The notes: generated from the letters alone by a model not told the origin. A DNA stretch of 64,000 nt from a virus (IMGVR_UViG_2925939204_000001), one strand, 5' to 3'; positions 3,742 to 60,587 are shown, counted from the first letter of the stretch. A program made the numbers and translations.

Positions 3742-3756
3742 ATGTGTTTTACTATA

Positions 3757-4589: not shown

Positions 4590-4618
4590 CTTCCTTTCGA
4601 TACCTGACAGATCGACCT

Positions 4619-6186: not shown

Positions 6187-6189
6187 TAA

Positions 6190-32100: not shown

Positions 32101-33354
32101 TCCGGCTTAACCGGTAAATCTTTTGGATTTAAAAAAGCTTCTCAAGTGGCTGATATCGCAACAGCCATACAACAAAAACGCACTGTTAATCACGATACAG
32201 AAATCATTGATCTACTTCCGGGAGATCAAGTATCCCCTTTTACTCCGAAAACCCCACAGCAGGAGCAGGCTCTAGCAATCAGCCAGGCTATGGAGGGCTT
32301 TTCGTCTGCAGCGCCAGCACCGAAAACCCCACAGCAGGAGCAGGCTCTAGCAATCAGCCAGGCTATGGAGGGCTTTTCATCTGCAGCGCCAGCACCGAAA
32401 ACCCCACAGCAGGAGCAGGCTCTAGCAATCAGCCAGGCTATGGCGGGCTTTTCATCTGCAGCACCAGCACCGAAAACCCCACAGCAGGAGCAGGCTCTAG
32501 CAATCAACCAGGCTATGGCGGGCTTTTCGTCTGCAGCGCCAGCACCGAAAACCCCACAGCAGGAGCAGGCTCTAGCAATCAGCCAGGCTATGGCGGGCTT
32601 TTCATCTGCAGCACCAGCACCGAAAACCCCACAGCAGGAGCAGGCTCTAGCAATCAACCAGGCTATGGCGGGAGCTGCGCCAGTAGTTACCTCTGGAAAA
32701 CGAACTGTCACGGCACCAAGTGATGTGCAGATTTATGACAACGGCTACAAGGTGGTTACAGGTGAGGATAAGAGCTTCTTTGGTTCGCTATTTGATTCCA
32801 CGGTGTCAGGGCTTAAACAGGCAGGGACCGCAGTAATTCCTGCCGTTGGCGATAACCTTTCACGACTTGTTGGGGGGATTGATAGTACAGGGATATTGAA
32901 CGATCTTGTAATGCAGTCTACTGGGCAGAATAGTGCGATTGCGCGAGCTATTAGCCCATTAACAAGAAATGTTGGAGACTGGCTGAATGGAGGGATTCAA
33001 CAAACCGCTAATAGCATTAGGGGAATAGCAACTGGTGCCAATAACGCCATATTTGGCTCTGCTTCAGCTGTGCAAGAACCTTTTCTTGCTATGCCGCCAC
33101 AACTCCCTACTGTAACCGATCTCGCACGAAGCGGAATAAGACAACCATTAACTACTGACACTATAAATAACGATCCTGCTATGTTGAAGGCGCTGGATAA
33201 CATCTGCTCTATCCTGAACGATCTGCTGAATGTGAACAAGAACAATACAAAAGGCGATCCGGATAATGTTGTCAAAACATCGCAGCCGCAGCCGCGACCA
33301 CGTGCGAGCACAACTATTAATGACCAGTCGCTGGATGCTCTGCTTGAGGATTAA
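29149..33354 (+). CDS. tape-measure-like / injection protein with putative cell-wall-hydrolase domain (1401 aa; P1 Sit-like)
   Basis: Very long Ala/Lys-rich helical protein; central domain (NLGNLVFANQEG...EEGIRALANQV...KWAPPNENNT) looks glycosidase/transglycosylase-like; six tandem 25-aa repeats. Confidence 0.6.
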   Translation: MASTPYVKSPGRKIQSSSRETLIAAGKREVILKENKDRIAIIDAIQGASTNELNALAEIKDAILSGRGSITQLGENQGNVSQRLSRRLIASEPYVSDDAKNTQANPYIKRLPMKKGRTQINNGEERLIVATNTSERVHFASSRQSAQKLKGSVPVAANSAPLEPQSPQSQKGPLRDSNGRFVSQKNNEDIARKKEWQKARKADAKLQEGFLRKLGSIIGVDGNQSSSEESLTDAAGVGAGGPLWMAARGMYDITKEITGKAESLKEWVEKGKGEASPSKATSPAITYPAVVNTQKATSATAFNTAVETKSAQAVEEQTKILQTNDNKIIDGLENVSDEVVKLRKSVSSGDKFGLSDLWKNRASRRNKINIGDQAGKNKRNKPKRKGRNLGKKALSVGEKAAAGTAAAGAGAGAAKAVKTKVSKAKDISTTSDASKGIAKETKNTTKAVKPAGVVAEEATIKTGETVAKKKTESLALKSAAKIGVKSAASTAARAIPIIGSVAMAGYDAIDGYTDTDAQKAAFGLSDDDAVSEQQKTAYATANVLDMGGLVSGATNLIGKGISALGFERAGEKLQDFDTGDIARGVNGAVDITKSVFGSLKDTFLSTDENTKQVKKAVEDGTKKTVDAIHSLGEQLQGGRNGEDGVGEHGYTSPTEFSAPANNTIAADLNIGGSNAKNRNYRNNNLGNLVFANQEGAILESPNAKGEQRFARFNTPEEGIRALANQVSSYYNGTSAAAGYQKLQTVSSIISKWAPPNENNTNQYIDNVSKYLGVSPNEKIDVSKPEVMTQLVRAIATKEGGNPAVNNEFIKNALGAFNTNTGRWEGQFSDETLARINKIQKENGGQLIARDSQYSVGRKVKYANGKSPAQPVLNAVPTATQQPIEVAQHAQAVKKPQKTGNQPQPINPESADVNTGSPSSLLERLIAINESGISGASNLFGGAATSLAGTSLDLVKDFALATSFGSISSLSEKAKGMDQALTEKISGLTGKSFGFKKASQVADIATAIQQKRTVNHDTEIIDLLPGDQVSPFTPKTPQQEQALAISQAMEGFSSAAPAPKTPQQEQALAISQAMEGFSSAAPAPKTPQQEQALAISQAMAGFSSAAPAPKTPQQEQALAINQAMAGFSSAAPAPKTPQQEQALAISQAMAGFSSAAPAPKTPQQEQALAINQAMAGAAPVVTSGKRTVTAPSDVQIYDNGYKVVTGEDKSFFGSLFDSTVSGLKQAGTAVIPAVGDNLSRLVGGIDSTGILNDLVMQSTGQNSAIARAISPLTRNVGDWLNGGIQQTANSIRGIATGANNAIFGSASAVQEPFLAMPPQLPTVTDLARSGIRQPLTTDTINNDPAMLKALDNICSILNDLLNVNKNNTKGDPDNVVKTSQPQPRPRASTTINDQSLDALLED
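32245..32690 (+). repeat. six tandem 75-bp in-frame repeats (PKTPQQEQALAISQAMEGFSSAAPA)
   Basis: Units start 32245, 32320, 32395, 32470, 32545, 32620; minor variants ME/MA and IS/IN. Confidence 0.85.
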
Positions 33355-39542: not shown

Positions 39543-39544
39543 AT

Positions 39545-39778
39545 ATGGAGAATATCTATTTCAGCCCAACGACCGTTGGTTTTTATGTTTCTGAACAAGA
39601 GCGACCTGATGATGCGGTTGAAGTCTCGCCAGAGGTGGAGGCATTTTTGAGGGAGTGTGTTATCTGGGGAGCGGATACATTTAACGTAGAGCGAGATGCA
39701 GCAACGGTGACATATCCAACAGAACTGCTTGAATATGTCACCACCTACAACGCCCCCGTTAAATATCCTGCGGATTGA
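39545..39778 (+). CDS. tail fibre assembly (Tfa)-like N-terminal domain protein (77 aa)
   Basis: N-terminus [18 protein letters not shown] matches Tfa pattern; lacks conserved Tfa C-terminus. Confidence 0.45.
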
Positions 39779-40169
39779 CAGGCCATACGGGTTTTGCTGT
39801 ATCAACGCGCATCAGCAAGACCCGGTATTTTTTCCATTCAGATAACGCGGCGGTTTCTTCTGCCGTCGCGATTTCCGCATCAAAAGCATCCTGTCTCTAG
39901 GCTATTTCCTTATCAGCCATAGAACGCAATACCGTTCTTTTCTGTTCAGCCTGAATAATCTGTTGTTCAGCGGAGAGTGGCGGGATATCAATCCACGCAG
40001 GATTACCATTTTTATCAGCCCCCAGCGTTTTGCCTTGTGGCGCTACGCCTGTGTAAATTGCCATTGTTTCATCATCAACATCAACGCCATTTTCAGGCCA
40101 TGAACCGGCGCTGATATATACCTCTTTTAGTGCTTTCGGATAGAAAGAGCCTTTATAAAATTTATTCAT
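39744..40169 (-). pseudogene. tail fibre assembly (Tfa/U-like) gene interrupted by in-frame amber codon
   Basis: MNKFYKGSFYP...AWIDIPP...RSMADKEIA, then TAG at 39897-39899, then in-frame [39 protein letters not shown] (conserved Tfa C-terminus). Confidence 0.5.
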
Positions 40170-40643
40170 TCTTAATACCCCAGCGCGATAAAACAACAAT
40201 CTTTGGTGCCCTCTCCGGATGGCGACCAGTTCTGAATACTGATATGCGTTCTGCTGGCAATACGCACATTCATCGCGGCATTGTAGCCAGATGTTCCACG
40301 GTTTCCGGTCGCAAATAAGCCTGCATAGGGAAAAGCAAATGGTAAGCCGCTCTAACTGCTATACGACCAAGGCTTCATCTCTGGAAAACATACGCAGAAC
40401 CTTTTTTAACCCTTGGCGTTTAGCCTTTTTGCCACTCGCTTTGCCCTCAAAAATTAGCTCACATCCTGCGCTTTCAAGGGGGCGTTGCAAAGCGGTGTTT
40501 TGGTCATTTGTTGATATGCGAATGTATCTAATAAGCATATGTCTCCCCTTGTATGTTAAGGAAGGAGATTTTAGAAGATGTCCTGTAAGGAAATAACAAA
40601 CTGACTAAGGTAGTGGCGCATTAGATGTTATTTCTGGAGGGGT

Positions 40644-40970
40644 ATGTTTGCAGATTATGAAAATCTGGCTGTAGTAGTCATAACATCCCTACTAAGTGGA
40701 ACCGGCGTATTCCTTCTCGGAGTTAGAGACGGGCGCATTTCTGCGTCCCTGCTCAATCTTGCGAGTGAATTGTTTACTGCGGTAACAGCCGGGCTTGCGG
40801 GGTATGGGGTGGCGGTTAGCCAAGAATGGCCTGAAGGTATCATTTTCTGCGTTGTTCTGATTGCCAGTAACAACGGTAGTGAAATTTTACAGGGCTTGAA
40901 GTCCAGAGCTAGTAACGTCTTGAATCTCTTAAGCGTAATAGCGAATGGGGGAAAAGGTGGAGAGAAATAA
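40644..40970 (+). CDS. small three-TM membrane protein, holin-like (P1 LydA-like?)
   Basis: 108 aa with three hydrophobic segments; first gene of operon. Confidence 0.4.
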   Translation: MFADYENLAVVVITSLLSGTGVFLLGVRDGRISASLLNLASELFTAVTAGLAGYGVAVSQEWPEGIIFCVVLIASNNGSEILQGLKSRASNVLNLLSVIANGGKGGEK

Positions 40971-41416
40971 TGGGTAACTTTGGAAATTATTTCATTTTTA
41001 TCATGGCATTTGTTGCCATCATTGACCGTTTCATTTTTCGTCGCAAGAGTGTTGAGATTTTGAGTATTGGTGACGCTGTAGTGAAAGAATCCGCTATAGC
41101 ATTTCCTGTTTCGCTACGTGTTAAGCGAAGCTGGTTCAGCAATGCTCAAATCGAATATTGGTTGCAAGACCTGAAAAATCCATCTGTGGTTATTTCAGGG
41201 AAAACGCGACCAGTTGACGCTTCAAAACGCGGTGAGAGAGAAGAGTATTTGCTCATCGATACGAAATATCTTGAGCCAACGAAGTGGGATCTGAAAGTCA
41301 CATTGACTAACGGTAACTGCCGACTGAATCCGCTTTATCGCATTTTCCCTATCAATGACTGCATAGAGCGCCAGTTTACGATCGAAAAGCGTGAAGGAGA
41401 CTGGGATGTCAAATAA
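40970..41416 (+). CDS. N-terminally anchored membrane protein (148 aa; LydB-like?)
   Basis: Single N-terminal TM (YFIFIMAFVAIIDRFIF); start overlaps upstream stop. Confidence 0.4.
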   Translation: MGNFGNYFIFIMAFVAIIDRFIFRRKSVEILSIGDAVVKESAIAFPVSLRVKRSWFSNAQIEYWLQDLKNPSVVISGKTRPVDASKRGEREEYLLIDTKYLEPTKWDLKVTLTNGNCRLNPLYRIFPINDCIERQFTIEKREGDWDVK

Positions 41417-42026
41417 GAATAATTATGTTCTTCTTAATTATGATGAGTTAAACGAAAAGGGGCTGGCAAAACTCGTCAAAGAAATCAGCAAAGGTGGTTA
41501 CAAGATAGCGAGGGTGATCCCTGCAAGTAATGGCAGGAAGAAAGATGGGATCATGACGCGCACGTTTACCCTTATTGGTATTGATGAACAGACAATGGAA
41601 GTTCAGGTTAACGATACCGGTGATATATCTGGGATCAAACTGAATGGTAAAACAGTACCGTTCAAGCCAGTAAAAACAATGTCGTCTTTGGGGCAATCTC
41701 TTGCGGCTTTATTTAATCGTGGAGCAACTTCTTTCCAGAAGTCATTAGCTCGAAAACTTGCTCGTGCAGCAAAAAATATTGACGACGGAAATAAGAAGCG
41801 GCAGGGAGTTAAATCTAGCGCTCAGAAATTAGCTGAAGCGAAAGAATCACGTGATGCACTCCGTGAAGATATCGCTAATGCTAACGACAAACTGTCTAAA
41901 CTCCAGAGCAAGTCAGACAAAGTAATGCAAGATACGGGTAATGTTAAAGCTGCCTTGTCTCAGGAAGTAGCTAAGACACGTGCTCTTAAAGAAGAAATCG
42001 CGCGCCTGGAGGATGAGCATGATTAA
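41406..42026 (+). CDS. hypothetical protein with C-terminal coiled coil (207 aa)
   Basis: Start taken at MSNKNNYVLL; operon member. Confidence 0.5.
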   Translation: MSNKNNYVLLNYDELNEKGLAKLVKEISKGGYKIARVIPASNGRKKDGIMTRTFTLIGIDEQTMEVQVNDTGDISGIKLNGKTVPFKPVKTMSSLGQSLAALFNRGATSFQKSLARKLARAAKNIDDGNKKRQGVKSSAQKLAEAKESRDALREDIANANDKLSKLQSKSDKVMQDTGNVKAALSQEVAKTRALKEEIARLEDEHD

Positions 42027-43956
42027 CAATCCTTTACGAATTAATATTCAGTCTACTTTTGCTGATACGATCCCCGGCTATATGCCAAGTCGCTGGTCTT
42101 CAGAAGAATTAAGCGAAGATGACCTGATTTTTGAGGCGGCGACCTTAGAAGATATTGAGCTTGCCTATATGGGCAATGAAATTCTGGTTGTGTCTGACGA
42201 AGCTATGTTTGAGTCCATAACTACAACCAGAATTCGGTTAGCTCAAACAATGCGAGCTTTCGTCCGTGCGCTGAATCGTGGCCTGAATGGTACGAATATT
42301 ATGGCAGGGACTGATGAAGCTGGGACCGATGAAAATGGACGTAATTGTATTGGTGGTGCGATTATCGGTCGTGTACGTCGGGTAGCTAATATCCCTGTTT
42401 TGACCGCGCAGATACCGCTTACTGACGGGCAGAGTACAAGCATAATTTTCCACTCTCCAACAGCTGACGGGGCAAAAATAAAGAGTAACGACGAGCTTGT
42501 TGCATTTCAGTTTTTACTTAATAAGCGTAACGTAACTCACGTTGTCGCCCCGATTGGTGGGAGAGATGTTTCTTTAAGCCAGGTATGCCAGGCGCTATCT
42601 AATTTGATTGAGCGTAACAGCGAAAAATTTAAGAAAGCAAAAGAGCGCCAGGATAAAATGAAGGCAGATATTGAGAGTTATCTCAATGAAGCAGATAAAC
42701 TGGCAGAAGAACGGTCAATAATGATTGATCAGGTGGACGTTGCGCAACGTGGGCTGACTGAAAAGCGTGCTGCTCTTACGGAGATGCAAAAAAAACTTGA
42801 TGCCCAGAAAGCCATCAACGAGGAATTACAAGAAAAACGCGATAAATTGTTGTCTGCTAAAGGTGAAAAAACGAAGGAACGAGCGTTTAGTGACCAGCTG
42901 CGACATGTAAAACATAATCTTGCCATTGACGGAAAAACAGTGCTGGATAATGGCGCTGAAGTTAATTATATCACGTCCGGCAGTGACAATTTCGTTACGA
43001 TAATAGCACCTGAAGGTAAATTCAGTATTGATGCCAGTGCTGTCAAAGGAGGCAGTTTGGCAGATGCTGCAACCAAATTACTTAAAGCCTACCGAGAGCA
43101 TAACGCAGATAAATATAAAGTTGATGTGTTACCAGGCCAGCAGGAAGACCCCGAACCACCACAGACAGACCCCGAGACGAACCCAGTATCACAACCAGAG
43201 AGCCAGGATGTAGGTAAATACCACTATGCACTTCAATCTCGCCCGGCTGGTGTTGGTGCTGTGCCGGATGGAAATAAAGCCGTGCTTGATCGTCCTGACC
43301 AGGCTGATCAGTATTACGAATATGCTCGTCACGGTATCATTACGTATGACCGTAAACTGACAGATGAAGAAGTCAGCCAGTACGAGTTGCTCTATCTTCC
43401 TGATGAAGATGAGCTGAAAGATTTTGCAGACCAATTGGTTGCGTCCAGCATGTCGAAACATATTGATGGCTATGTGGACCTGTTTGGCAGTGACCTGAAA
43501 ACATTCAAGGCGCAAGTGAAAATTCTTTTCCGCAAAGAGTTTCCGAACGTGGCTTATCCGCTTGGTGATGGGGAGAACCTTTTCATTATGGACGTATATA
43601 ACGCCCTTCAAAATCATTCAAACGAAGCAACGCCAGAGCCTGAATTAGCACCTGTAGTTGAGCCAGAATCCCACCCACAAACAGAACCAGAGCAACAGCC
43701 AACGCCGGAAGACGCTGGAGAAGCGGCAACTGAAGCAGATCAGGAAGCAGATAAAGCGTTGGAGTACCTTAAATCCGTCCCGGTGCAGTTTACATCCCGC
43801 GATCTGACGGTAATCAGTGCCGAACTTGACCATGTGCAGGAAGCTGCAAACGCTCTTATCAGTGCTGGTCGATACGACGAGAACGAATCAACGGTTGGCG
43901 CAGCAGTTGACTACCTGATCAACATCCTGGCTGAAATTCAGCAGGGAGGTGCTTAA
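42019..43956 (+). CDS. large virion-associated protein candidate (645 aa; DarA-like by size and context)
   Basis: GGAGG SD 6 nt before ATGATT; overlapping stop/start with neighbours; coiled-coil and acidic Pro/Glu-rich segments. Confidence 0.5.
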   Translation: MINNPLRINIQSTFADTIPGYMPSRWSSEELSEDDLIFEAATLEDIELAYMGNEILVVSDEAMFESITTTRIRLAQTMRAFVRALNRGLNGTNIMAGTDEAGTDENGRNCIGGAIIGRVRRVANIPVLTAQIPLTDGQSTSIIFHSPTADGAKIKSNDELVAFQFLLNKRNVTHVVAPIGGRDVSLSQVCQALSNLIERNSEKFKKAKERQDKMKADIESYLNEADKLAEERSIMIDQVDVAQRGLTEKRAALTEMQKKLDAQKAINEELQEKRDKLLSAKGEKTKERAFSDQLRHVKHNLAIDGKTVLDNGAEVNYITSGSDNFVTIIAPEGKFSIDASAVKGGSLADAATKLLKAYREHNADKYKVDVLPGQQEDPEPPQTDPETNPVSQPESQDVGKYHYALQSRPAGVGAVPDGNKAVLDRPDQADQYYEYARHGIITYDRKLTDEEVSQYELLYLPDEDELKDFADQLVASSMSKHIDGYVDLFGSDLKTFKAQVKILFRKEFPNVAYPLGDGENLFIMDVYNALQNHSNEATPEPELAPVVEPESHPQTEPEQQPTPEDAGEAATEADQEADKALEYLKSVPVQFTSRDLTVISAELDHVQEAANALISAGRYDENESTVGAAVDYLINILAEIQQGGA

Positions 43957-44330
43957 TGACTATCTCTGTTTTAGACCGTCTGAAATTGGGTAAAGAGCTA
44001 TCAGATTTAATGCAGGCGCAGAAAACCGCGCCAGTATTACAACGCGTCGCAATTGGTAAGCAGATTGTTGATCTGATGCTTAAGCTGGGGCTGGGTGCTG
44101 CCGCTCAACCGATATCGGAACCGCAACCGCACCCACAGTCTGATCCTGTTGCAGATGAAGTTCCTAAGATAGTGACTGACTTCCTGGGCGGTGTGTTCAC
44201 AAAGTCCACACAAATGGAATTTATTGATGCGCTGCGTGGGATCTCAAACTATGTTGGCGAGTTCCTTACGTTGGAGCAGGCTAAAGAGCAGACCATCGGT
44301 TGGGTTAAAGCCAACGGATATGCCGGATAA
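43956..44330 (+). CDS. hypothetical protein (124 aa)
   Basis: Start overlaps upstream stop (TAATG). Confidence 0.5.
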   Translation: MTISVLDRLKLGKELSDLMQAQKTAPVLQRVAIGKQIVDLMLKLGLGAAAQPISEPQPHPQSDPVADEVPKIVTDFLGGVFTKSTQMEFIDALRGISNYVGEFLTLEQAKEQTIGWVKANGYAG

Positions 44331-44375: not shown

Positions 44376-45730
44376 AAACCCCGTCCTTCAGGGCGGGGAT
44401 ATAAGGCGCGGTTTTCCACCTAAATTTTTTTGTTTAAAATAGCGGGATGAAACGACTACAGGCATTTAAATTCCGGTTAAGACCAGATGGTCAACAGGAG
44501 CGAGAAATGAGGCGCTTCGCGGGAGCTTGTCGTTTCGTTTTCAATCGTGCTCTGGCGCTTCAGAATGAGAATCATGAAGCCGGGAACAAATATATTCCTT
44601 ACACAAAAATGGCTTCCTGGCTGATTGAGTGGAAAAATGCCTCTGAAACGCAATGGCTTAAAGATTCTCCCTCACAGCCATTGCAGCAATCACTGAAAGA
44701 CCTTGAGCGGGCCTACAAAAATTTCTTCCAGAAGCGTGCGGCTTTCCCCCGATTCAAAAAGCGGGGACAGAATGATGCATTCCGCTACCCGCAGGGCGTT
44801 AAGCTCGATCAGGAAAACAGCCGTATTTTTCTGCCGAAACTGGGCTGGATGCGCTACCGGAACAGCCGTCAGGTCACGGGTGTTGTGAAAAATGTCACTG
44901 TCAGCCAGTCCTGCGGTAAGTGGTACATCAGTATTCAGACAGAAAGTGAAGTATCAACTCCGGTTCACCCTTCAGCATCAATGGTCGGGCTGGATGCTGG
45001 CGTGGCTAAACTCGCCACGCTGTCAGATGGCACAGTCTTTGAGCCTGTAAACAGTTTTCAGAAAAACCAGAAGAAGCTGGCGAGACTTCAGCGACAGTTA
45101 AGCCGCAAGGTCAAATTCAGCAACAACTGGCAGAAGCAGAAACGCAAAATACAGCGACTGCATTCCTGTATCGCAAATATCCGCAGGGACTACCTTCACA
45201 AAGTCACAACGACCGTCAGCAAAAACCACGCAATGATAGTCATTGAGGATTTGAAGGTCAGCAACATGTCAAAGTCAGCAGCGGGTACGGTCAGCCAGCC
45301 GGGGCGCAATGTCCGGGCAAAATCAGGTTTAAACCGTTCGATACTGGATCAGGGCTGGTATGAAATGCGCCGCCAGCTTGAGTACAAGCAGCTCTGGCGT
45401 GGCGGTCAGGTGCTTGCTGTTCCGCCAGCGTACACAAGCCAGCGTTGCGCGTACTGTGGTCATACAGCGAAAGAAAATCGCCTGTCACAAAGTAAATTCG
45501 AGTGCCGGGCATGTGGATATACAGCGAACGCCGATATAAACGGCGCTCGTAACATTTTAGCGGCGGGACACGCCGTTCTTGCCTGTGGAGGGATGGTGCA
45601 GTCAGGCCGCCCGTTGAAGCAGGAACCCACCGAAATGATTCAGGCAACAGCCTGAGCGTAGCAGGAATCCATGTTCTTGAGGGCGTGGAGGATGTCAACT
45701 GTTCTCACATAAATCACACACTTTTTACAC
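44376..45730 (+). mobile_element. IS200/IS605-family element carrying only tnpB (IS609-like); boundaries approximate
   Basis: Subterminal hairpin CCCCGTCC-TTCA-GGGCGGGG at 44379-44398 before tnpB; no tnpA ORF. Confidence 0.6.
44447..45655 (+). CDS. tnpB: IS605-family TnpB (OrfB) RNA-guided nuclease-type protein
   Basis: Near-identical to E. coli K-12 InsQ/YdcM as recalled; C-terminal zinc-finger [25 protein letters not shown]. Confidence 0.9.
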
Positions 45731-45731
45731 T
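45711..45731 (+). promoter_or_regulatory. late-promoter-like element AAATCACA-N7-TACACT
   Basis: ~30 nt upstream of 45762 gene, near IS right end. Confidence 0.35.
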
Positions 45732-51707: not shown

Positions 51708-52414
51708 TGGAAATCTGCATTCTTGAAAAGCCATCAATGACCAGCATTGAGATCGCTGAGCTGGTGGGAAGTCGCCCTGATAACGTTAAACGCACTATTG
51801 AACGCTTGAGTAAATCAGGTGTTATTCCACTTCCTCCAATGGAGGTTTCCGAAAATATCAATAACTTAGGATTTAAAGTTAAAAATTCACACTACGTCTT
51901 CGAAGGCGAGCAAGGCAAGCGTGACAGTATCATTGTCGTTGCGCAGCTTTCTCCCGAATTTACCGCCCGGCTGGTGGACCGCTGGCGCGAACTGGAAGAA
52001 CAAGCACGCCAGCCGTTGACCGAAATAGAGATGATCGCCGCAATGGCTGCAAATGCAGTTCAGCAGCAAAAGCGGCTTCATGTTGTTGAGTCAAAGGTTA
52101 GCCAGGTGGTAGAAACCGTTGAGCAAATCAAGAAAGGCAATATGCCGGAAGGCTACATTGGCTACCGCCAGCTGGCGGCGAAATGTGGCCTGACTGAAGC
52201 CAAATGCCGTAACCTTGTCAACGCTTACCGGATTCCCACCGATACGCATGAGTTTTTAACTCCAGAGGGGGTATTGTCGCGTCGTTCCATCGTGGCCTTA
52301 TCTCCCTTCATGAATGCTTTTAACCGGATGATGTCGGAGGCTGAACACCGAGGAAAACGCTGGTATCACCCCAAAATGGGGCAATTCCAGGTGATCGGTT
52401 GGGGAGGTGAGTGA
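51707..52414 (+). CDS. antirepressor-like protein (235 aa)
   Basis: N-terminal HTH-like SIEIAELVGSRPDNVKRTIERL; shares KKGNMPEGYIGYRQLAAKCGLTEAKCRNLVNAYRIPTDTHEFLTP block with 18049 gene. Confidence 0.55.
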   Translation: MEICILEKPSMTSIEIAELVGSRPDNVKRTIERLSKSGVIPLPPMEVSENINNLGFKVKNSHYVFEGEQGKRDSIIVVAQLSPEFTARLVDRWRELEEQARQPLTEIEMIAAMAANAVQQQKRLHVVESKVSQVVETVEQIKKGNMPEGYIGYRQLAAKCGLTEAKCRNLVNAYRIPTDTHEFLTPEGVLSRRSIVALSPFMNAFNRMMSEAEHRGKRWYHPKMGQFQVIGWGGE

Positions 52415-52611
52415 TGGACATCATGCAGGCGGTAAAAAAAATCAGGGAAGGACAGGCTGAAGTGTGCCGCCGTAAAGCATGGAGTATTGATGTATGGGCC
52501 TGGCCTGATAATTACTCTACTACCGGATGGTTTTGTATTAATGGACTCAAGATCCGGGAAGTTTATTTATCGACGGCTGATATAGTCGGTAATGATTGGA
52601 TCGTGACTTGA
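52411..52611 (+). CDS. DUF2829-like small protein (66 aa; Tad2-like candidate)
   Basis: Pattern ...QAEVCRRKAW...LSTADIVGNDWIVT (R..W near N-terminus, DxxxxDW(I/E)V C-terminus). Confidence 0.45.
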   Translation: MMDIMQAVKKIREGQAEVCRRKAWSIDVWAWPDNYSTTGWFCINGLKIREVYLSTADIVGNDWIVT

Positions 52612-52617
52612 AGCGTG

Positions 52618-52646
52618 ATGCCCCGGCCTGGCCGGGGCTTTTTTCA
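52618..52646. terminator. bidirectional terminator (GCCCCGGCC-TG-GCCGGGGC + TTTTTT)
   Basis: 9-bp GC stem with T-run; between convergent genes. Confidence 0.7.
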
Positions 52647-53129
52647 TGCCTCATTAGTTGAGGTTGCTGCGTCTCCGACTGGTAACAGAGCGGTATTGCG
52701 TGGTTCGCCAGCAGGCCAGCGATAGCCAGACACTCTTGATGTTGGGAATGCGCGAATATTAACCGCATCCCCCTGGTTCCCACCCAGGACAAGCAGATCG
52801 CCATTGGCGCGGCGTCCGACAACGAAGCCTACGTGCCCACCGCCTACGCGGGTAAATACAACGATACATCCGTATGCCGGTGTATCTAATTTCTCGCCCC
52901 AATCCAGATAGGATTTTGCCGACTCAAATCTTGTTGAGCGGATGCCTACACGTTCCAGCATTGCACCGACAAATGCTGCGCACCACGGCGTTTCATCGTC
53001 TTTAATTCCGCCGCGCTTGATGTCGCGCCAGAACTGAACGATTTCAGGGTTGTGTTTAGCGCCTTTTATTTCAGTCAGGCCAATGTGCTTACGGGCTTCA
53101 ATTAGCCAGCGAGGTTCAATGTTTGCCAT
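52644..53129 (-). CDS. NlpC/P60-CHAP-like putative cell-wall hydrolase (161 aa)
   Basis: WCAAFVGAML (Cys) ... GCIVVFTRVGGGHVGFVVG (His) ... LGGNQGDAV arrangement typical of Cys-His peptidoglycan peptidases. Confidence 0.55.
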   Translation of the reverse strand: MANIEPRWLIEARKHIGLTEIKGAKHNPEIVQFWRDIKRGGIKDDETPWCAAFVGAMLERVGIRSTRFESAKSYLDWGEKLDTPAYGCIVVFTRVGGGHVGFVVGRRANGDLLVLGGNQGDAVNIRAFPTSRVSGYRWPAGEPRNTALLPVGDAATSTNEA

Positions 53130-53204
53130 ATTTTTCTCCCGGTCATGGGTTAATAAGTAGGCAAACTATGGGGAGTATGTGATTTTGACGGTAGTATCGT
53201 CCCC

Positions 53205-56200
53205 GTGAAAATAACATTCTCCATACCCTCTCAACCGTACCGCATAGCGGAATTTTTACGGTTTAGAGGGGGAAATCCTTTGGACAAACTACTTCATTCA
53301 ATCAGTGAAGCCTCCAGCTTAGGCGAACTGATTGAAATTGTTAGTCGGTTGCATAAATTACGAGCTGTTGCGACCTTTGGCGTCAGGAAAGCCGATGGCG
53401 TCAGTATTCAGAAAACACGCCGGGCAGCAAACAATGCCGCAGTAAATCTTCTTAATTCCCTTCCGCCCGGCTTCGATGGGGCGAAATTAACTGACGAACA
53501 ACGTCAGATTCTTGCCGGGTATACCGGTGAAGGCGGCCTGACAGATGGTGAGGGCAGCCAATACGAATACTACACGCCACAGTTTATGGCTGAAGGTATA
53601 TGGGATCTGTTTGCTGACTACGGTATTGATGGCGGGCACGTACTGGAACCATCAGCGGGCACAGGTATTTTCCAGGAGACAAAACGACAGGGCATGATAA
53701 TGACCAGCGCCGAACTGTCTCCGATTTCCGGTCGAATAAACCAGCTTTTGCACCCGGAAGACGATGTGAATATCGGGGCGTTTGAGGCGCTGGCGGCGAA
53801 AGACGCAATGTATGATCACGCTGTTGGTAACGTACCGTTTGGTGAAGGGCGTTCCGGTGTCGCCGGGCTTGATCCGGCATATGCAAACGAGAAGAACGTT
53901 GGCAATTACTTTGTGCTGCGCACGATCGACAAGGTTAAGCCTGGTGGGCTTATCGTATTGGTGGTGCCGAATGGCATGACCGATGGTGCGAAATATAAAA
54001 AATTGCGCGATAAAGTCAGCCGTAAAGCGGAATTTTTGGGCGCGCATCGTATGCCTTCCGGTACGTTCAGTGAATCAGGTACAGATACCGTGGTGGACGT
54101 ATGGGTATTGCGTAAACACCCGGAAGCCTTCCTGGAGATGATCCCCGATACGGATGATTCGACGCTCAAATCGGCAAACGTCCTTTGGGATACCTTCCTC
54201 AAAGGAAAATGGTTTACAACCGAAGGGAAGCGATTTGTTTACGGCGACATGGAACGTACCAGCTTCCGCAATACCCTGGTGGTGAAAAAAGACGGTCGTG
54301 TATCCAATGAGTCGATGAAAACCGCGCTATCTCGTCGCTTTGATAGTCGCATCAATTGGGATTTGCTCGGCGTAACTACTCAGGCATGGCAGGGCGCGAA
54401 AGTGGGCGATAAACGCCTTGTAGGCGGTATCTGGCATGAGTTTGATGGTCTGAAATGGGTTAAGGACACGACAACCAAATCCTCCGCGCTTGATGTAAGT
54501 CGATATGGTGTTTCGACGTTTGGCGATCTGCAGATCGCGTTTCAGTCAACAAATGGCATTCTGGCTTTGTCATGGGACCAGATATCGGCGATCGCGTCTG
54601 ACTACCCATCGGTTGTCAGTGATGAAGTGGCAGCAATGATTCGCTTTGCTGGCAAGCAGCGAGAAAAAGACAGGGAGCGCGTTATGCGCGGTGCACTGAT
54701 AGGTCAGTTGATCAACAAGGCACTTGATTTGCGTAACCTGGGGGTGAACGTTGATGACAAACTGGCAGATGCATCCCGCCTGGCGGCAGCAGAAGTTGCG
54801 AAGTATGGACCACCGCACGCGATTAAGCTGAATGGGCTTGCTGAAGCTGGCGCTAAAAACTGGATGACGTTCACTGGCAATGTGAAACAGGATGGTTCCA
54901 CTTCTGACCTTCTGGCAGGGCGACTTGATGTAACGGATGGTGCTGCCGGTATTGACTTTACGCGTCCTGAACAAGTGATAGCACATCTTTTTAGTGATGT
55001 AGCCCTTAATCCTATAACGCTTGGCGACTTTCGTGAGGCGTTTGCTGGTGAACTGCCAGAGGACGACGACGCGGCCCTTGAATACCTGGCGAAATTTGAT
55101 GATATCGCTATTGATGGGTATGGCTGTCTGCTGCCGATGGACCGCGCCACCAGCGGCGATGTTGCAACCAAAACAGCACTGCTGGTGGGCTGGCGTGATG
55201 CGTCAACAGGTGAGCAGAAAGCGAACTTTGAGCGTCAGTTGGCGAAAATCGAAGAGAAACGCATTTTCACGCCACTAAATAAAGTCACCGTTAATCTGAA
55301 TGCCCGCTGGCTGGATCGCCGCTTGATAAAAGAGTTCCTGGCAGAGCAGGGCTATGACGAGTTTAAGTACACTGAACCTGATCTGAAGGTCGTCGATGGC
55401 ATTCTGGTATCTCCGGACGATTACGAAGGTAAGGACGGTGTATTTACCGGCTACCAGCTACGAACCGTAAACGGCAAAAACGGGAATGAGTTCAAGAAGG
55501 CCAACAATAAAGACGGCTTCCTGAACCAGTTAGAAAACTACCTGAACGGTGTTAAACCGCGTGGGCAGAATGCTAACGAGTACCTGGATAAAATTGCTCA
55601 ACTGGAAGTTAGCTTTAACGACTGGTTACGCACCCACCCGCAGGCGGATCAGATAGCCCGTGACTATAACGACGCATTCAATGGTTTCATTCCGTTCACA
55701 CATTCTGACGCACCGCTAGGCCTGGAAGGGATTAGTGGAAAGCGCATTCCTCTGACTTATCAGAATGAAGAAGTTCGCCGCTTGTCAGAAGATGGGCGTG
55801 GCATCATGGGATTTGGTACCGGGCTGGGTAAAACCACGACCGCGCTTGCGCTTGAGGCGTATAACTTCGAAACAGGTCGCACTAAACGCACGTGTATTGT
55901 TGTTCCGAAGGCGGTTTATCAGAACTGGTATCACGAGGCACAGAGTTTCTACAGTGCTGATGCCTTCGCCAATATGATGTTTATCGGTTTGGATGAAGTT
56001 CGTGATGACGGCGGAAATATTCTTACCGCGCCAGTGCTTGATGAAAATGGCGAACCACGCCTCGACAGTAACGGGCAGCCTCTTACCAGAAATGTTGTGA
56101 AAGAGTCCGCCAGCGCCGTTATCGTTCAGCGCATGAACATGATCCCGTCGTCAAATTGGCGAACGGTCATCATGACAAAAGAACAATTCGCGTCTATCCC

Positions 56201-59200
56201 GCTACGAGAAAAAACCATCGAGGAGAACTCACAGCAAGCTGTCTTTAATGCTGTGGAAATGGGGCGTCTTGACCTGGCCTCCGGTAAACACCGTGATGCG
56301 CAGAAGAAGAACAAGATTAAGGATCAGGCCGCGAATACCGGTACAACGAAGAAGCAGAATATCCCGTACTTTGAGGATATGAACTTCGATAGCGTGATTG
56401 CCGACGAGGGGCATAACTACCGCAACTCCTTTAATGCCGGGCGTGAAGCGGGACAACTGGCATATTTGCCTAACCCGGCAGTATCCAAGATGGCCCGCGA
56501 CATGGCTGTAAAAGCTGCGTACATGATGAAACGCAACAACGGGCGTGGTGTAGTCATGCTGACGGCAACTCCGCTGGTGAACAGTCCGATTGATGCCTTC
56601 AACATGCTGTCTACTGTCATTCCGCAGGAAGAGTGGATGCGCATGGGTATTGTTACGCCGGATGATTTCGTTCGCGTGTTCGGCAAAACAGCCACAGTTC
56701 AGGTTCAGAAAATTTCCGGTGAGGTGGAAGAGAAGCAGGGGCTGGTGGGCTTCCAGAACCTTGATGGTCTGCGTGGTATTTTCCACCGTTGGACCACTCT
56801 GAAGACTGCCGCAGATGTCGGAGCGACGGTTAAAATTCCCGATATCATCGAGAACACCTTGCAGATCCCGATGACAGGGGAGCAGGAGGCTGCTTATGAA
56901 GAGCTTCGTAAGCGTGCTCAGGAGTTAAGTCGCAATGATGAGCTGACAGTCGATGAAAACGGGCATATCACTAACGACAAACCGGATGATTTCATCTTCT
57001 CCATCATCCGCGACATGGATAAGGTTGCTATAGATCCGGATCTGTATGCCAGTGCGATTACATTCCAGTTCCCCGTTGAGCTTGCAGACAAGGTAAAAGC
57101 TATTGCTGATGCCCTGCCAAAAGTCGCAGGCGGTAAAGTGGCAGATGATGCAGACGAGGCCGAAGAAGACGGCGCTGGTGGACTGGTCAGTACGCGTACC
57201 AGCAAGGTAGTGAAGACCACCTTTAGTGCACATCCGGCGCATGTTGAAATACGCGCCAGCATTGAACTGGAAGCTGAAATACTGAAGGCCATTGCTGCCG
57301 CCGGGATTGATCTGCAGCAGGTATCACACCCCATCCCACCGAAGTATGCCGCGCTGATCGAAAACCTTCGTGAAGGTCTGAAGAACGGTAAACAAATTGT
57401 CTTCATTGATGAAAAAGCCCAGCACCAGAAGCTGCGCCGTATTATCGCCAGTGCACTGCAAATGCCGGAGCAGGAGATAGGCATTATCAATGCGACGACC
57501 GTTAGCCAAGCTGGCGGCATCAAGCTGAAGAAGGTGAATAAACCGACTGAACCTACTCCGAATAAAAACGGTGAATACAAAGAAGGGGCATGGGAAACCT
57601 ACTACAGCAAACTTGCCCAATATGAGGATTATCTCTCAGCTAAAAATGATGCTGGCCTTGAGGGCATGGAAGGTATTGCCGCCGACTATAACGAAGGTCG
57701 CACGCGCATCATAATCTGTAACAAGAAGGCTGAAGTAGGTATTAACCTGCACATCGGGACAACCGATATCCACCACCTGACACTACCCTGGACACCAGCC
57801 AGTATCGACCAACGAAATGGTCGCGGTGCGCGCGTAGGGTCACCGCAAGAGAAGGTCAATGTTCACTACTATTGTGGCAAAGGCACATTCGATGACTTCC
57901 GTCTGGATACGCTTAAACGTAAGAAAGACTGGATCAAGATGGTGATGACCTCCGACATGTCAGAGATCGCCAATGGTGATGCGGATGATGCTGATGAACG
58001 CGCCATTATGCTGGCGGCAAACCCGGAAGAACGCCGCGCAATCATGGCTCGCCAGGCGCAAGAGCGTGAAGAACGTCTGAAACTGAAAGCACAGCGCGAG
58101 GCCAACAATGCTCTCGATATCTACCTGAAAGCGGCAAACGCCGCCGGAAAAGATATCGGCATGATGGAGACAGAACTGAAAAGCGCGATGGAACAGATAG
58201 AGTATTACCAGCGAAATCTTGACGACCTGATAAAAGCGGGTACGAACAGGAATGGGCAAAAATACGCACTTGAGCAGTTGAGTAGCTACAGAAAACGTGC
58301 GCGGGTGCTGCGGTTTGCGATCACCAGGGCAAAAGACGCGGATACCATAATGAAACGCTCTCGTGGTGATGTGGAGCGCGCTATTAAGTCTGGTGTGCTG
58401 GATATCAGTATCGATGTTATTCAGAACCCACAGGAGTATATGCGCACTGACAAGAATATCCTGTTGCATAAAGGTAGTTATTACCGTGCAGTCATTGATG
58501 ATCGCGAAACAACAGCGATTGTCCGGGTGGAAAAAATTGACGGTGAAAAAGCACAATACCTCTGCCGTATCGCCTGGCTGGATAGAGCAAGTCGTTACGC
58601 TCGAGCACCGGGGTCAATCGTTACATTGCCGTTTGACTCTGTGATTGAAGCGGTAACTTTTGAAGAGGGGGTAGCTGAATCGCGCGCAACGGCTGCGCGA
58701 GGTGTTCAGTGCCACCAGCTATCAACAATACTTACTCGCGATCAGTTCTATGATGCTATTCGCAATGGGGTAATGAATGTTATTGCTGGTAAACCTGGTA
58801 ATGCATGGGGCGGTGGGTCAGCTATTAAATACTGGGCATATCGCACAGATGATGGTCAGATCGCGCTGTCATCGGCCTATGATGGCGTGATAGGCCAAAA
58901 AATCGGGCGAGCATCGGATATAGCACCTGAGCGATGGATATATCCTGATGGCAACGACGAGGCGCTGAAGCGTGAAGTAGCAAAAATACAAGCCAGTGAT
59001 AACCCGCTGAATATCGTGGACGGCGAGGGATTCCTCCAGGCATTGTATGGGTATGATTACATCCAGGGAATGCAGGCATGGGGCGCACAGGCAACGATGG
59101 ATGATGTTGCCCAGGAGTTCGAAAACTGGATGGCTGGGCGTGGTCTGTCAGGTCGTTCGCTTAATAAAGTCACTTCTGAAGATATTCTTAGCTTGTTCCG

Positions 59201-60116
59201 CAAACCGTCCGGAGAAGGTCTGGAATCATTCTGGAGGACCGTGCTGGCATACCGTTTATTCCAGGGCAGGATGAAAGCCTTTAGCAATATCGATGATATT
59301 GAACGGATGTTTAATCAGGTCAAGATCGCGAAAATTAAGGCGAAGATCGAAAAAACACGTTCTGCGCTGGTGGCCTGGCGCGATGCATTGTTTGAGCAAT
59401 ATAAATCACTCAGTGATGCAGATGGATGGGCGGCATTGGAACAGCTGGCGAATAATGGGGTAGATGGAGCTAAACTCGCCATTGTTCAGGCTGATAACCC
59501 CCTGGAATCACCGGCAGCACAGTGGATTAAGGTGGGGGCTGTCATCAATGCATTTGATGAAAAACACATTAGTAAGGACGATTTTGCTGATGCTGTTTCT
59601 GTTAATCGCCTGGTAGAAATGGCTACCCGCCGCGCCCGTGAGTTGAAAGACGGCGACTATGTGAATGAGTTGCCGGATACGCTCAAATCGGCAACGTGGC
59701 AGGACTATGTATCGCTGAAAAACGGCGGGGCCACTGAATCAGAGATCGCGGAAAGGCTTGAGCAGGCTGAAAGCAAAAGAGAAGAGCAGGCGGCAGTGGC
59801 TGAAGCCAGAGCTGATGAAGCGGCGAATGATGACTATATCATTGTGGTTAATGATAAGCCGATTCGCGCTAAGGCGCGTGTTCGCGGGCGCTGGTGGAGC
59901 GTCAGCGAGGACGTTGGCGCGGTTTATCTCATTGCCGACCAACCAGGTTCCTCGACAATACGGAACGCCAAAGACGCGATTAAGAAGATTGGCGGGCGTT
60001 TCTGGAATTTTGAAGCAAACCCGGTTGCTGATGTGAACTTTGACCGTCCTGCATGGATGGTATCTACGCGTTACTCGGTAGATGAACTGCGTAAAATAAT
60101 CGCCGATGCGGCCTAA
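53205..60116 (+). CDS. darB: giant methyltransferase-helicase, DarB-like virion antirestriction protein (2303 aa, GTG start)
   Basis: N-terminal N6-adenine MTase motifs (LEPSAGTGIF, GNVPFG); central SF2 helicase motifs (GFGTGLGKTT, ADEGHNYRN, LTATPLVNSP, QRNGRGARVG); architecture matches P1 DarB as recalled. Confidence 0.8.
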   Translation: MKITFSIPSQPYRIAEFLRFRGGNPLDKLLHSISEASSLGELIEIVSRLHKLRAVATFGVRKADGVSIQKTRRAANNAAVNLLNSLPPGFDGAKLTDEQRQILAGYTGEGGLTDGEGSQYEYYTPQFMAEGIWDLFADYGIDGGHVLEPSAGTGIFQETKRQGMIMTSAELSPISGRINQLLHPEDDVNIGAFEALAAKDAMYDHAVGNVPFGEGRSGVAGLDPAYANEKNVGNYFVLRTIDKVKPGGLIVLVVPNGMTDGAKYKKLRDKVSRKAEFLGAHRMPSGTFSESGTDTVVDVWVLRKHPEAFLEMIPDTDDSTLKSANVLWDTFLKGKWFTTEGKRFVYGDMERTSFRNTLVVKKDGRVSNESMKTALSRRFDSRINWDLLGVTTQAWQGAKVGDKRLVGGIWHEFDGLKWVKDTTTKSSALDVSRYGVSTFGDLQIAFQSTNGILALSWDQISAIASDYPSVVSDEVAAMIRFAGKQREKDRERVMRGALIGQLINKALDLRNLGVNVDDKLADASRLAAAEVAKYGPPHAIKLNGLAEAGAKNWMTFTGNVKQDGSTSDLLAGRLDVTDGAAGIDFTRPEQVIAHLFSDVALNPITLGDFREAFAGELPEDDDAALEYLAKFDDIAIDGYGCLLPMDRATSGDVATKTALLVGWRDASTGEQKANFERQLAKIEEKRIFTPLNKVTVNLNARWLDRRLIKEFLAEQGYDEFKYTEPDLKVVDGILVSPDDYEGKDGVFTGYQLRTVNGKNGNEFKKANNKDGFLNQLENYLNGVKPRGQNANEYLDKIAQLEVSFNDWLRTHPQADQIARDYNDAFNGFIPFTHSDAPLGLEGISGKRIPLTYQNEEVRRLSEDGRGIMGFGTGLGKTTTALALEAYNFETGRTKRTCIVVPKAVYQNWYHEAQSFYSADAFANMMFIGLDEVRDDGGNILTAPVLDENGEPRLDSNGQPLTRNVVKESASAVIVQRMNMIPSSNWRTVIMTKEQFASIPLREKTIEENSQQAVFNAVEMGRLDLASGKHRDAQKKNKIKDQAANTGTTKKQNIPYFEDMNFDSVIADEGHNYRNSFNAGREAGQLAYLPNPAVSKMARDMAVKAAYMMKRNNGRGVVMLTATPLVNSPIDAFNMLSTVIPQEEWMRMGIVTPDDFVRVFGKTATVQVQKISGEVEEKQGLVGFQNLDGLRGIFHRWTTLKTAADVGATVKIPDIIENTLQIPMTGEQEAAYEELRKRAQELSRNDELTVDENGHITNDKPDDFIFSIIRDMDKVAIDPDLYASAITFQFPVELADKVKAIADALPKVAGGKVADDADEAEEDGAGGLVSTRTSKVVKTTFSAHPAHVEIRASIELEAEILKAIAAAGIDLQQVSHPIPPKYAALIENLREGLKNGKQIVFIDEKAQHQKLRRIIASALQMPEQEIGIINATTVSQAGGIKLKKVNKPTEPTPNKNGEYKEGAWETYYSKLAQYEDYLSAKNDAGLEGMEGIAADYNEGRTRIIICNKKAEVGINLHIGTTDIHHLTLPWTPASIDQRNGRGARVGSPQEKVNVHYYCGKGTFDDFRLDTLKRKKDWIKMVMTSDMSEIANGDADDADERAIMLAANPEERRAIMARQAQEREERLKLKAQREANNALDIYLKAANAAGKDIGMMETELKSAMEQIEYYQRNLDDLIKAGTNRNGQKYALEQLSSYRKRARVLRFAITRAKDADTIMKRSRGDVERAIKSGVLDISIDVIQNPQEYMRTDKNILLHKGSYYRAVIDDRETTAIVRVEKIDGEKAQYLCRIAWLDRASRYARAPGSIVTLPFDSVIEAVTFEEGVAESRATAARGVQCHQLSTILTRDQFYDAIRNGVMNVIAGKPGNAWGGGSAIKYWAYRTDDGQIALSSAYDGVIGQKIGRASDIAPERWIYPDGNDEALKREVAKIQASDNPLNIVDGEGFLQALYGYDYIQGMQAWGAQATMDDVAQEFENWMAGRGLSGRSLNKVTSEDILSLFRKPSGEGLESFWRTVLAYRLFQGRMKAFSNIDDIERMFNQVKIAKIKAKIEKTRSALVAWRDALFEQYKSLSDADGWAALEQLANNGVDGAKLAIVQADNPLESPAAQWIKVGAVINAFDEKHISKDDFADAVSVNRLVEMATRRARELKDGDYVNELPDTLKSATWQDYVSLKNGGATESEIAERLEQAESKREEQAAVAEARADEAANDDYIIVVNDKPIRAKARVRGRWWSVSEDVGAVYLIADQPGSSTIRNAKDAIKKIGGRFWNFEANPVADVNFDRPAWMVSTRYSVDELRKIIADAA

Positions 60117-60152
60117 CAGATAAGGAGCGGCCCCAACTGGGGCCGAATTTGA

Positions 60153-60587
60153 ATGACGACATTAATTGACACTGTAAAACAGACGGAATCCTACCTTGAG
60201 GACATTTTGCCGCAGGCGCTCAATGGCAGGAGTGAAGAGGCGTTTCTGGATGCATATCTGAAAGGCATGGTGGAAAGGCTGAAACGAGATCCACAGCTTT
60301 ATCACCTTTATGGGCCGTGGTGGCCTGCGCTTAAAACGTTATTGCTGGAGCGCGGCGACATATCATTTGGACAAGTTGTAGATAGTGATGTGGCAGAGAT
60401 CTACAAAATGAGTCGCCCGGCGCTTACGGTTTTGGCTGGGCATCTGTATTCGAGCGATCGCCTGGAAAATGACGCGGTATACAATCCTGTTCATGCTCTG
60501 GAAGTCGCACCTTATGCCGATGATACAGAGCCATACGTGTACACAAGTTACGACGAGTCTATAGAGAAATATCGAATTATGGGGTAG
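60153..60587 (+). CDS. acidic hypothetical protein (144 aa)
   Basis: ORF directly after darB; D/E-rich. Confidence 0.5.
   Translation: MTTLIDTVKQTESYLEDILPQALNGRSEEAFLDAYLKGMVERLKRDPQLYHLYGPWWPALKTLLLERGDISFGQVVDSDVAEIYKMSRPALTVLAGHLYSSDRLENDAVYNPVHALEVAPYADDTEPYVYTSYDESIEKYRIMG

Follow-up and report, generated by a model that had tools for sequence, protein, structure and literature searches.

A TTG-initiated DarB homolog and a divergently encoded single-domain peptidase, the likely endolysin, in a D6-like phage-plasmid of Escherichia coli

The closest described relatives of the locus reported here are found in the phages P1 and D6. The locus lies in the viral sequence IMGVR_UViG_2925939204_000001, of which 64,000 nucleotides were analyzed (the window, that is, the whole stretch of DNA), and comprises two divergent genes, one for a 2278-residue homolog of the P1 protein DarB and one for a 161-residue cysteine peptidase. 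P1 DarB is the archetype of the methylase-helicase dyad among injected "polyvalent" proteins (PMC5512222). Approximately 40 copies of it are packaged per virion, and EcoB and EcoK are countered (PMC9024508; PMC12810830). The N-terminal 30 residues of the protein are a capsid-targeting signal, and Ulx helps DarB to localize to the head in P1 (PMC9024508). For the peptidase, a tested relative is available in LysPM2 of Proteus phage vB_PmiS_PM-CJR, a single-CHAP-domain endolysin described in 2026, which lyses Proteus cells with a permeabilized outer membrane and for which Ca2+ dependence was reported (PMC13461873). The comparison of the locus with these systems indicates that the DarB homolog starts at a TTG codon at position 53280 and that the peptidase is likely the endolysin of the element.

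The window represents a D6-like, P1-related plasmid prophage of E. coli. Positions 52400-60300 are 98.5% identical to Escherichia phage D6 over the entire stretch (7.9 kb, nucleotide level), and positions 52600-60150 match plasmids carried by E. coli AR_0118 (91 kb) and AR_0128 with 100.0% identity. At least 80% of the locus is held by 92 of the 5,426 complete E. coli genomes, nearly always on plasmids, and by 112 plasmids in PLSDB, Salmonella plasmids among them; the D6-type element is thus encountered frequently in both genera. The same two genes are orf15 and orf16 of D6 (MF356679; Gilcrease and Casjens 2018). The orf16 product is 100% identical to the peptidase of the window, whereas the two DarB homologs differ in 18 of 2278 residues, and the order of the neighboring genes (icd, ant, orf17, orf16 on the opposite strand, darB, and ulx) is identical in D6. 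The D6 authors annotated orf15 as "defense against restriction, similar to P1 gene darB" and labeled orf16 "putative peptidoglycan hydrolase", and a study on a D6-like plasmid of Salmonella suggested in 2019 that the lysis module could include the hydrolase (PMC6799933). Both genes are already known in that public records carry essentially these annotations. The locus contains nothing new in kind, as good descriptions of the DarB family exist and one relative of the peptidase has been characterized.

The smaller gene was found where an earlier note on this DNA had placed it (52644-53129 on the minus strand, 161 codons from an ATG), and the Cys-His hydrolase proposed in that note was corroborated by homology and by the predicted structure. 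The protein matches TIGR02594 with 143.3 bits (cut-off 70.55) over positions 2-132 of the 132-position profile, as well as Pfam CHAP with 31.4 bits (cut-off 26). The residues Cys50, His99, and Asn118 are invariant in 13 homologs with identities down to 39% and in 33 closer sequences. For the AlphaFold2 model of the protein, the predicted local distance difference test score (pLDDT) was 85.4 and the predicted template modeling score (pTM) 0.86. The top matches of the model among Protein Data Bank structures in Foldseek were MepS, Acd33800, LytE, an NlpC/P60 D,L-endopeptidase of T. thermophilus, and Tse1, with a probability of 1.00 for the NlpC/P60 peptidases and of 0.9 for Tse1 (template modeling (TM) scores of 0.4-0.5), and the predicted fold is that of the NlpC/P60 family. 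A search of the solved structures with the amino acid sequence returned only a chance hit to GAPDH.

Taking the comparisons between elements, the homology, the predicted fold, and the genomic contexts together, the 161-residue protein is likely an endolysin that depends on a holin. The earlier note had left the choice between an endolysin and a virion-associated lysin. The first alternative is the one favored by the stand-alone domain, by the similarity to LysPM2, by the lysis cassettes in which relatives are found, and by the position of a close relative in the lyz slot of P1-like plasmids; the second is less favored. Among annotated phages, the family is found in two settings, either as a stand-alone protein of approximately 160 amino acids encoded in lysis cassettes or as a domain within hub proteins of the Vi01 type. 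The 161-residue protein belongs to the stand-alone kind. It shares 53% identity with LysPM2 (QYC51792) over the whole protein; LysPM2 is of nearly the same length (158 amino acids), also consists of a single domain, and has the Cys, His, and Asn residues in common with the peptidase. The LysPM2 gene is located within a cassette of the order holin, x, endolysin, i-spanin, whereas the gene in the window is monocistronic and 12 kb away from the holin gene. Relatives with 69-75% identity were found in lambdoid prophages. In a Citrobacter prophage, genes for a Q-type antiterminator and an S-type holin precede the gene of the relative, which is followed by that of a membrane-anchored protein and then by the terminase genes. 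In a Klebsiella prophage, the relative is encoded between antiterminator and terminase genes, and no holin family is on record. The order in Pseudomonas phage SCUT-S3 is holin, endolysin, Rz, Rz1.

At the level of sequence comparison, the most telling evidence for an endolysin comes from the P1-like plasmids. The P1 genes lyz-lydD-lydE are located downstream of prt-pro and are convergent with them. The Citrobacter P1-like plasmid pCfr13-1 has the P1 gene order, with a TIGR02594 gene (78% identity) in the lyz slot, downstream of and convergent with pro. In a Pantoea P1-like plasmid, the P1 lyz slot is occupied by an enzyme of glycoside hydrolase family 104 (GH104). P1 Lyz (gp17), a signal-anchor-release (SAR) lysozyme that is accompanied by lydD and lydE, presumably has the same role as the peptidase of the window, but there is no sequence similarity between the two proteins, one being a glycosidase and the other a cysteine peptidase or amidase. 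In addition, a hydrophobic SAR segment is present at the N-terminus of P1 Lyz, with a top 19-residue hydropathy of 2.07, whereas the highest value in the peptidase (1.42) was located inside the core, and no transmembrane, SAR, or signal segment was found in this protein in the hydropathy scan. Because an SAR segment is absent, the peptidase should depend strictly on the holin. The window keeps the LydA holin and the LydB antiholin, and hydrophobic segments were seen in the lydA and lydB products.

The statement of the earlier note that no lysozyme-type endolysin is encoded elsewhere was confirmed. A tblastn search of the window and of two further stretches of D6 (1-6500 and 75000-91159) gave no homolog of P1 Lyz, LydD, or LydE. 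Apart from the Sit tail protein, no other muralytic enzyme is named in the annotations of D6 and of the 100%-identical plasmid, and no muralytic Pfam domain was detected in ten unassigned open reading frames (ORFs) of the window.

It is unlikely that the peptidase is instead a virion-associated lysin, either a tail or baseplate enzyme or a head protein ejected together with the Dar proteins, that opens the cell wall at entry. With 160.6 bits, the protein matches PHROG 1259, the family named "baseplate hub subunit and tail lysozyme", and the D6 gene carries this name in RefSeq. Moreover, the gene is probably a late gene and adjoins darB. PHROG 1259 comprises gp5-like hub proteins of Vi01-type phages (Ackermannviridae) and of ICP1, whose homologous catalytic domain is 39-48% identical to the peptidase. 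However, the match is confined to the catalytic domain (positions 987-1146 of the 1179-position profile), and neither hub nor OB-fold nor beta-helix parts are present in the 161-residue protein, whereas the Vi01 hub is a protein of 541 amino acids with the domain embedded. The RefSeq name is regarded as a carried-over family label because the domain stands alone. Stand-alone relatives are encoded in lysis cassettes, one of them is a tested endolysin, and without this gene no endolysin would be left in the element. The tail, furthermore, already has a homolog of Sit, the transglycosylase tape-measure protein of P1 (by annotation and PMC9024508), and the adjacency to darB is interrupted in the D6-like plasmid NZ_LR890273.1 and absent in pCfr13-1. 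The Sit homolog (29149-33354, plus strand, 1401 amino acids) is annotated as "transglycosylase"; the D6 copy is shorter (3783 nt, approximately 1260 amino acids). A Pfam scan of the Sit homolog at E values up to 0.001 gave no match, the SLT domain included, and its transglycosylase role is therefore taken from the annotation and the P1 literature (PMC9024508).

The larger gene corresponds to the ORF given in the earlier note (53205-60116 on the plus strand, 2303 codons when counted from a GTG), and its designation as DarB-like was supported over the full length. BLASTP against P1 DarB yielded 950 identities in 2372 alignment columns (40%, 1524 bits), and the alignment was collinear from Met1 to the C-terminus. 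P1 DarB (2255 amino acids) thus has the same architecture from Met1 to its end as the 2278-residue homolog. The large protein also matches PHROG 11801 and PHROG 10089 ("DarB-like antirestriction"). The methyltransferase and helicase domains proposed in the note were recovered in Pfam, where the thresholds were reached by N6_Mtase (20.8 bits, cut-off 20.4), SNF2-rel_dom (46.5 bits), ResIII (24.1 bits), and Helicase_C (24.5 bits). The methyltransferase, which is of the EcoKI/TaqI type, covers approximately residues 90-310, and the lobes of the SNF2 helicase cover approximately residues 820-1200 and 1460-1600. The methyltransferase motifs I (PSAGTG, residue 124) and IV (NVPF, residue 184) and the N-terminal YYTP (residue 97) are present in both DarB proteins. 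The same applies to the helicase motifs I (GTGLGKT, residue 846), II (DEGH, residue 1042), III (TATP, residue 1095), and VI (QRNGRGAR, residue 1511). Identity to P1 DarB is 50-55% in the methyltransferase and 48-68% in the two helicase lobes. Pfam at E values up to 1 and a sequence search of solved structures gave nothing for residues 1-93, 301-820, and 1600-2278, and the search of solved structures with the whole protein gave marginal hits only, to INO80 and to a type I methyltransferase. The window contains nine EcoKI, eleven EcoBI, and four EcoAI sites, which makes its DNA a potential target of restriction. Chi sites (GCTGGTGG) are present 31 times in the 64 kb on both strands, whereas about two are expected for random sequence, and seven of the 31 are located inside the darB homolog (53280-60116). 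P1 is Chi-rich as well, with 11 Chi sites in its darB (PMC11109961).

Weak local matches link the helicase C-lobe of the large protein to DrmD, DpdE, ZorD, and BrxH, and its methyltransferase to models of type II methyltransferases. That it belongs to a plasmid-borne system for defense or restriction-modification (DISARM, Zorya, Dpd, or type ISP-like) is nevertheless very unlikely. The scores are far below the cut-offs (DrmD 44.4 bits against 610, DpdE 33.4 against 500), and the PADLOC matches do not exceed 38 bits and cover only generic superfamily 2 helicase motifs. Pfam scans found no nuclease domain in the large protein, its alignment with P1 DarB is collinear from end to end, and the same element encodes the complete set of Dar partners. 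The defense-system interpretation was rejected, the matches to DrmD, DpdE, and ZorD being local and below the cut-offs. Somewhat less improbable, although still rather unlikely, is that the divergent 680 C-terminal residues might steer the injected DarB homolog to host defenses other than EcoB and EcoK; that the peptidase is a cargo of the Dar system too is less likely.

A sequence motif resembling a late promoter was found upstream of both genes. The combination AAATCACA-N7-hexamer (NANNNT) has seven exact sites in the window against 0.28 expected. The more general form AAAT[C/A]ACA-N7-NANNNT, which is equal to AAAT[C/A]ACA-N8-A-N3-T, has ten sites against 0.44 expected. All ten are located 25-51 nt upstream of the start codon of a head, tail, lysis, or dar gene, namely, the gene 7 homolog, upfC, the major capsid gene, pmgB/sit, R/S, lydA, ddrB, prt, the peptidase gene, and darB. 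The spacer between the two genes, which is 150 nt long, seems to hold two putative late promoters back to back. The pattern of the P1 type, AAGTR-N8-TANNNT, was not enriched in the window (two sites against three expected) and had no site near the locus. Conversely, the D6-type motif was absent from 22 kb of P1, and neither pattern was present in a 12-kb Citrobacter locus. In the Pantoea P1-like plasmid, AAATTACA-N7-TACATT precedes the GH104 gene. The difference from the P1 motif suggests that the Lpa homolog may read another box. For darB itself, only a sigma-70 promoter is annotated in the P1 record, whereas a promoter-like site of the D6 type is present in the window.

This arrangement also bears on the idea that the peptidase is an accessory gene expressed in lysogeny, encoding either an antibacterial effector or a wall-remodeling enzyme that benefits the host. 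Domains of the TIGR02594 type are found at the C-terminus of predicted type VI secretion system effectors of Stenotrophomonas (PMC13055248), and the peptidase gene forms a monocistronic unit on the opposite strand with a hairpin beside it, a layout often seen for accessory genes ("morons"). However, the protein has no secretion signal and no PAAR, VgrG, or LysM part, and an immunity gene does not neighbor it. The sole promoter-like element in front of the gene is of the type common to the structural operons, a sigma-70 scan yielded none on the strand of the peptidase gene, and the nearest relatives are encoded in prophage lysis cassettes. We consider an accessory function highly improbable.

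In contrast to the position and the family of the large gene, its start codon had to be revised. The earlier note had given a GTG start with a poor Shine-Dalgarno sequence and a protein of 2303 amino acids, which was not borne out; the gene starts with TTG 53280 and encodes 2278 amino acids. Met1 of P1 DarB is aligned with TTG 53280 (N-termini MDKLLHSISEASSLGELIEI in the window and MNKLSMGVFRCSSVSEILKY in P1), and a good Shine-Dalgarno sequence, AGAGGGGGA, stands 5' of this codon. Both the D6 authors and the Prokaryotic Genome Annotation Pipeline (PGAP) of NCBI begin the gene at this position. In the alignment of the spacers, GTG 53205 reads CTG in D6 and in plasmid pGA_Eco1, and, owing to a T5/T6 length difference between GTG 53205 and codon 26, the sequence further upstream is not in frame with the gene in either of them. 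Because of this single-nucleotide polymorphism and the 1-nt indel, the 25-codon extension exists in the window sequence only. The promoter-like site at 53209-53229 starts two bases after GTG 53205, and a transcript from this site would therefore lack that codon. The choice of the start matters because the first 30 residues of P1 DarB are the capsid-targeting signal, which an extension by 25 residues would bury. Although GTG 53205 gives the longest ORF in the window's own sequence, a start there is practically untenable, given that the codon and the frame are lost in D6 and pGA_Eco1, that the additional residues have no counterpart in P1 DarB and would mask the N-terminal signal defined in P1, that the codon sits on the upstream edge of the promoter-like site, and that no Shine-Dalgarno sequence was seen 5' of it.

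The leader of the darB homolog (53232-53300, plus strand) is predicted to form two hairpins with -16.8 kcal/mol (z-score -2.9), and none of the shuffled sequences folded as well. Hairpin 1 contains the T-run whose length differs among the relatives. In hairpin 2, the Shine-Dalgarno sequence AGAGGGG is paired with CCUUUGG, which holds the UUG start. This predicted fold, together with the weak start codon, may hold the translation of the 250-kDa protein low.

The adjacency of the two genes looks incidental, a matter of position rather than of function. The ORFs are 75 nt apart by the coordinates of the earlier note and 150 nt apart with the corrected start. In NZ_LR890273.1, a gene for 165 amino acids is inserted between the peptidase gene and darB (2223-2720), so the spacer accepts insertions; the product of the inserted gene is named "carboxypeptidase-like regulatory domain-containing protein". 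In pCfr13-1 and P1, prt-pro separates the endolysin slot from darB. P1 darB is divergent from prt-pro, whereas darB of the window comes after the ant operon and has the peptidase gene as its divergent neighbor. A functional coupling of the peptidase and darB was rejected because of the insertion in the spacer of NZ_LR890273.1 and the different layout in pCfr13-1 and P1. On its other side, the peptidase gene is delimited by a terminator-like hairpin with eight GC pairs followed by TTTTTT, the T-run being on the plus strand only.

Homologs of the P1 proteins Ulx, Hdf, DarA, DdrA, and DdrB, the partners that P1 requires for loading DarB into the head, are all encoded in the window, within a head gene set of the P1 type, according to tblastn, Pfam, and the D6 annotation (Table 1). 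The ulx homolog immediately follows darB. As in D6, translation of hdf and darA probably begins slightly downstream of the start of the longest ORF. The DdrB homolog is 65% identical to residues 2-434 of P1 DdrB, but only about half as long as the P1 protein.

Table 1. Features of the darB-peptidase locus and of the dar and lysis genes in the 64,000-nt window
Feature	Position	Strand	Basis or remark
Late-promoter-like motif sites	4569, 15642, 19576, 28214, 36050, 40591, 45711, 47159, 53185 (-), 53209		Enrichment scan
Late-promoter-like site of lydA	40591-40611	+	Same AAATAACA variant as darB site
lydA, holin	40644-40970	+	D6 annotation; Phage_holin_3_3 only 18 bits, below the cut-off of 28.4
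lydB, antiholin	40970-41416	+	Pfam LydB, 87 bits; D6 annotation
hdf homolog	41391-42026 (longest ORF)	+	D6 annotation
darA homolog	41980-43956 (longest ORF)	+	Pfam DarA_N, DarA_C; tblastn with P1 DarA, 38% identity, E 3e-128
ddrA homolog	43956-44330	+	tblastn with P1 DdrA, 33% identity
ddrB homolog, 461 aa	45762-47147	+	Pfam ddrB-ParB, 144 bits; own late-promoter-like site at 45711-45731
GC-rich terminator-like hairpin	52620-52638	.	Located where orf17 (+) and the peptidase gene (-) converge
TIGR02594/CHAP (NlpC/P60-fold) cysteine peptidase, 161 aa, probable endolysin, D6 orf16	52644-53129	-	ATG start
Late-promoter-like site AAATCACA-N7-CATAGT	53165-53185	-	36 nt upstream of peptidase ATG
Late-promoter-like site AAATAACA-N7-TACCCT	53209-53229	+	51 nt upstream of darB TTG
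Shine-Dalgarno sequence AGAGGGGGA of darB homolog	53265-53273	+	Read from sequence
darB homolog, 2278 aa, TTG start	53280-60116	+	Homology, Pfam, alignment with P1
ulx homolog, 144 aa	60153-60587	+	tblastn with P1 Ulx, 46% identity, E 2e-37; D6 annotation

Compared to D6, the window contains an additional gene for TnpB, located between ddrA and ddrB, and is without orf23 and orf24, which are located between ddrB and prt in D6. The TnpB gene (44447-45655, plus strand) encodes 402 amino acids, belongs to the IS605 family, and lies inside the dar/head operon; the domains HTH_OrfB_IS605, OrfB_IS605, and a Cas12f1-like TNB were detected in its product. It is also present in a twin plasmid (NZ_CP020051.1), and the late-promoter-like site of ddrB is retained 3' of the insertion. 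Two further regions differ from D6. At 8697-10925 (plus strand), a single ORF of 742 amino acids combines a C5-cytosine methyltransferase domain with an N6-adenine methyltransferase domain of the Dam type (D12 class), whereas the D6 counterpart consists of two ORFs, orf64 and orf63; in the twin plasmid, the Dam part is an incomplete pseudogene according to PGAP. The invertible tail-fiber segment (approximately 39500-40600) appears decayed, with only short ORFs where D6 has cin, S', U', and U, and PGAP lists a truncated recombinase gene and a tail-fiber assembly gene with an internal stop for this region of the twin plasmid. Outside the window, PGAP annotates a "Thoeris anti-defense Tad2 family protein" at 29707-30282 of NZ_CP020051.1 (orf6 of D6). 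Judged by this PGAP name, the element has at least one more putative counter-defense gene beyond the Dar system.

The data are best explained by two unrelated late genes that are neighbors by chance, each of which would be transcribed outward from its own late-promoter-like site in the 150-nt spacer. By homology with P1, the DarB homolog would be made late and recruited into the prohead via its N-terminus, which would require the co-encoded Hdf, DarA, DdrA, DdrB, and Ulx. Ejected together with the DNA, it would protect this DNA in cis against type I restriction. The conserved motifs suggest that it may track along the entering DNA, either methylating it or displacing type I complexes. The chemistry of P1 DarB is not established (PMC11109961, PMC12810830), and the mechanism proposed for the homolog is drawn from homology and domain content. 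The peptidase, a soluble single-domain protein with the predicted triad Cys50-His99-Asn118, would build up in the cytoplasm at a late stage of infection, gain access to the wall by way of holes formed by the LydA holin under the control of LydB, and cleave peptidoglycan at a peptide or amide bond. In this way, it would replace the signal-anchored lysozyme Lyz of P1, with which it does not share ancestry. The analysis itself showed the homology, the motifs, the predicted fold, the genomic contexts, the lack of a second endolysin candidate, and the enrichment of the promoter-like motif; late transcription, holin dependence, the type of bond cleaved, the packaging of DarB, and the anti-restriction activity are all features that we infer.

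Several points weigh against this explanation. The putative endolysin gene is 12 kb away from the holin genes lydA and lydB (40644-41416), and no adjacent spanin was identified, although lyz is likewise unlinked to lydA in P1. The same catalytic domain is part of virion proteins such as the 541-residue Vi01 hub, and a virion role is real for the family. The matches of the peptidase model to solved structures are just moderate (TM of about 0.5). The role of the motif as a promoter is deduced from its enrichment and position, and the motif is unlike the late promoters annotated in P1 (AAGTGAnTn-N4-TAnnnT). In the DarB homolog, the C-terminal 680 residues, that is, those past residue 1600, are only 19-26% identical to P1 DarB, and the targets may differ. 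For P1 DarB itself, no mechanism has been defined, and restriction alleviation confounded the tests made with plasmids (PMC11109961). The roles proposed for the putative endolysin and for the DarB homolog are predictions from sequence comparison.

While the value of these results as a discovery is small, their practical value lies in the correction of annotations. The start at TTG 53280 retains the N-terminus that serves as the capsid-targeting signal in P1, and the 161-residue gene bears a misleading name in RefSeq ("baseplate hub subunit and tail lysozyme"). Because single-domain CHAP endolysins of Gram-negative hosts were first tested only in 2026, this peptidase, which is widespread in E. 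coli, would be a handy second example. Among the P1-like phage-plasmids, different types of endolysin appear to have been swapped in one slot, with a SAR lysozyme of the GH24 family in P1, a GH104 enzyme in one Pantoea plasmid, and a TIGR02594 peptidase in Citrobacter and in the D6-type elements, and such a swap would alter the dependence of lysis on the holin.

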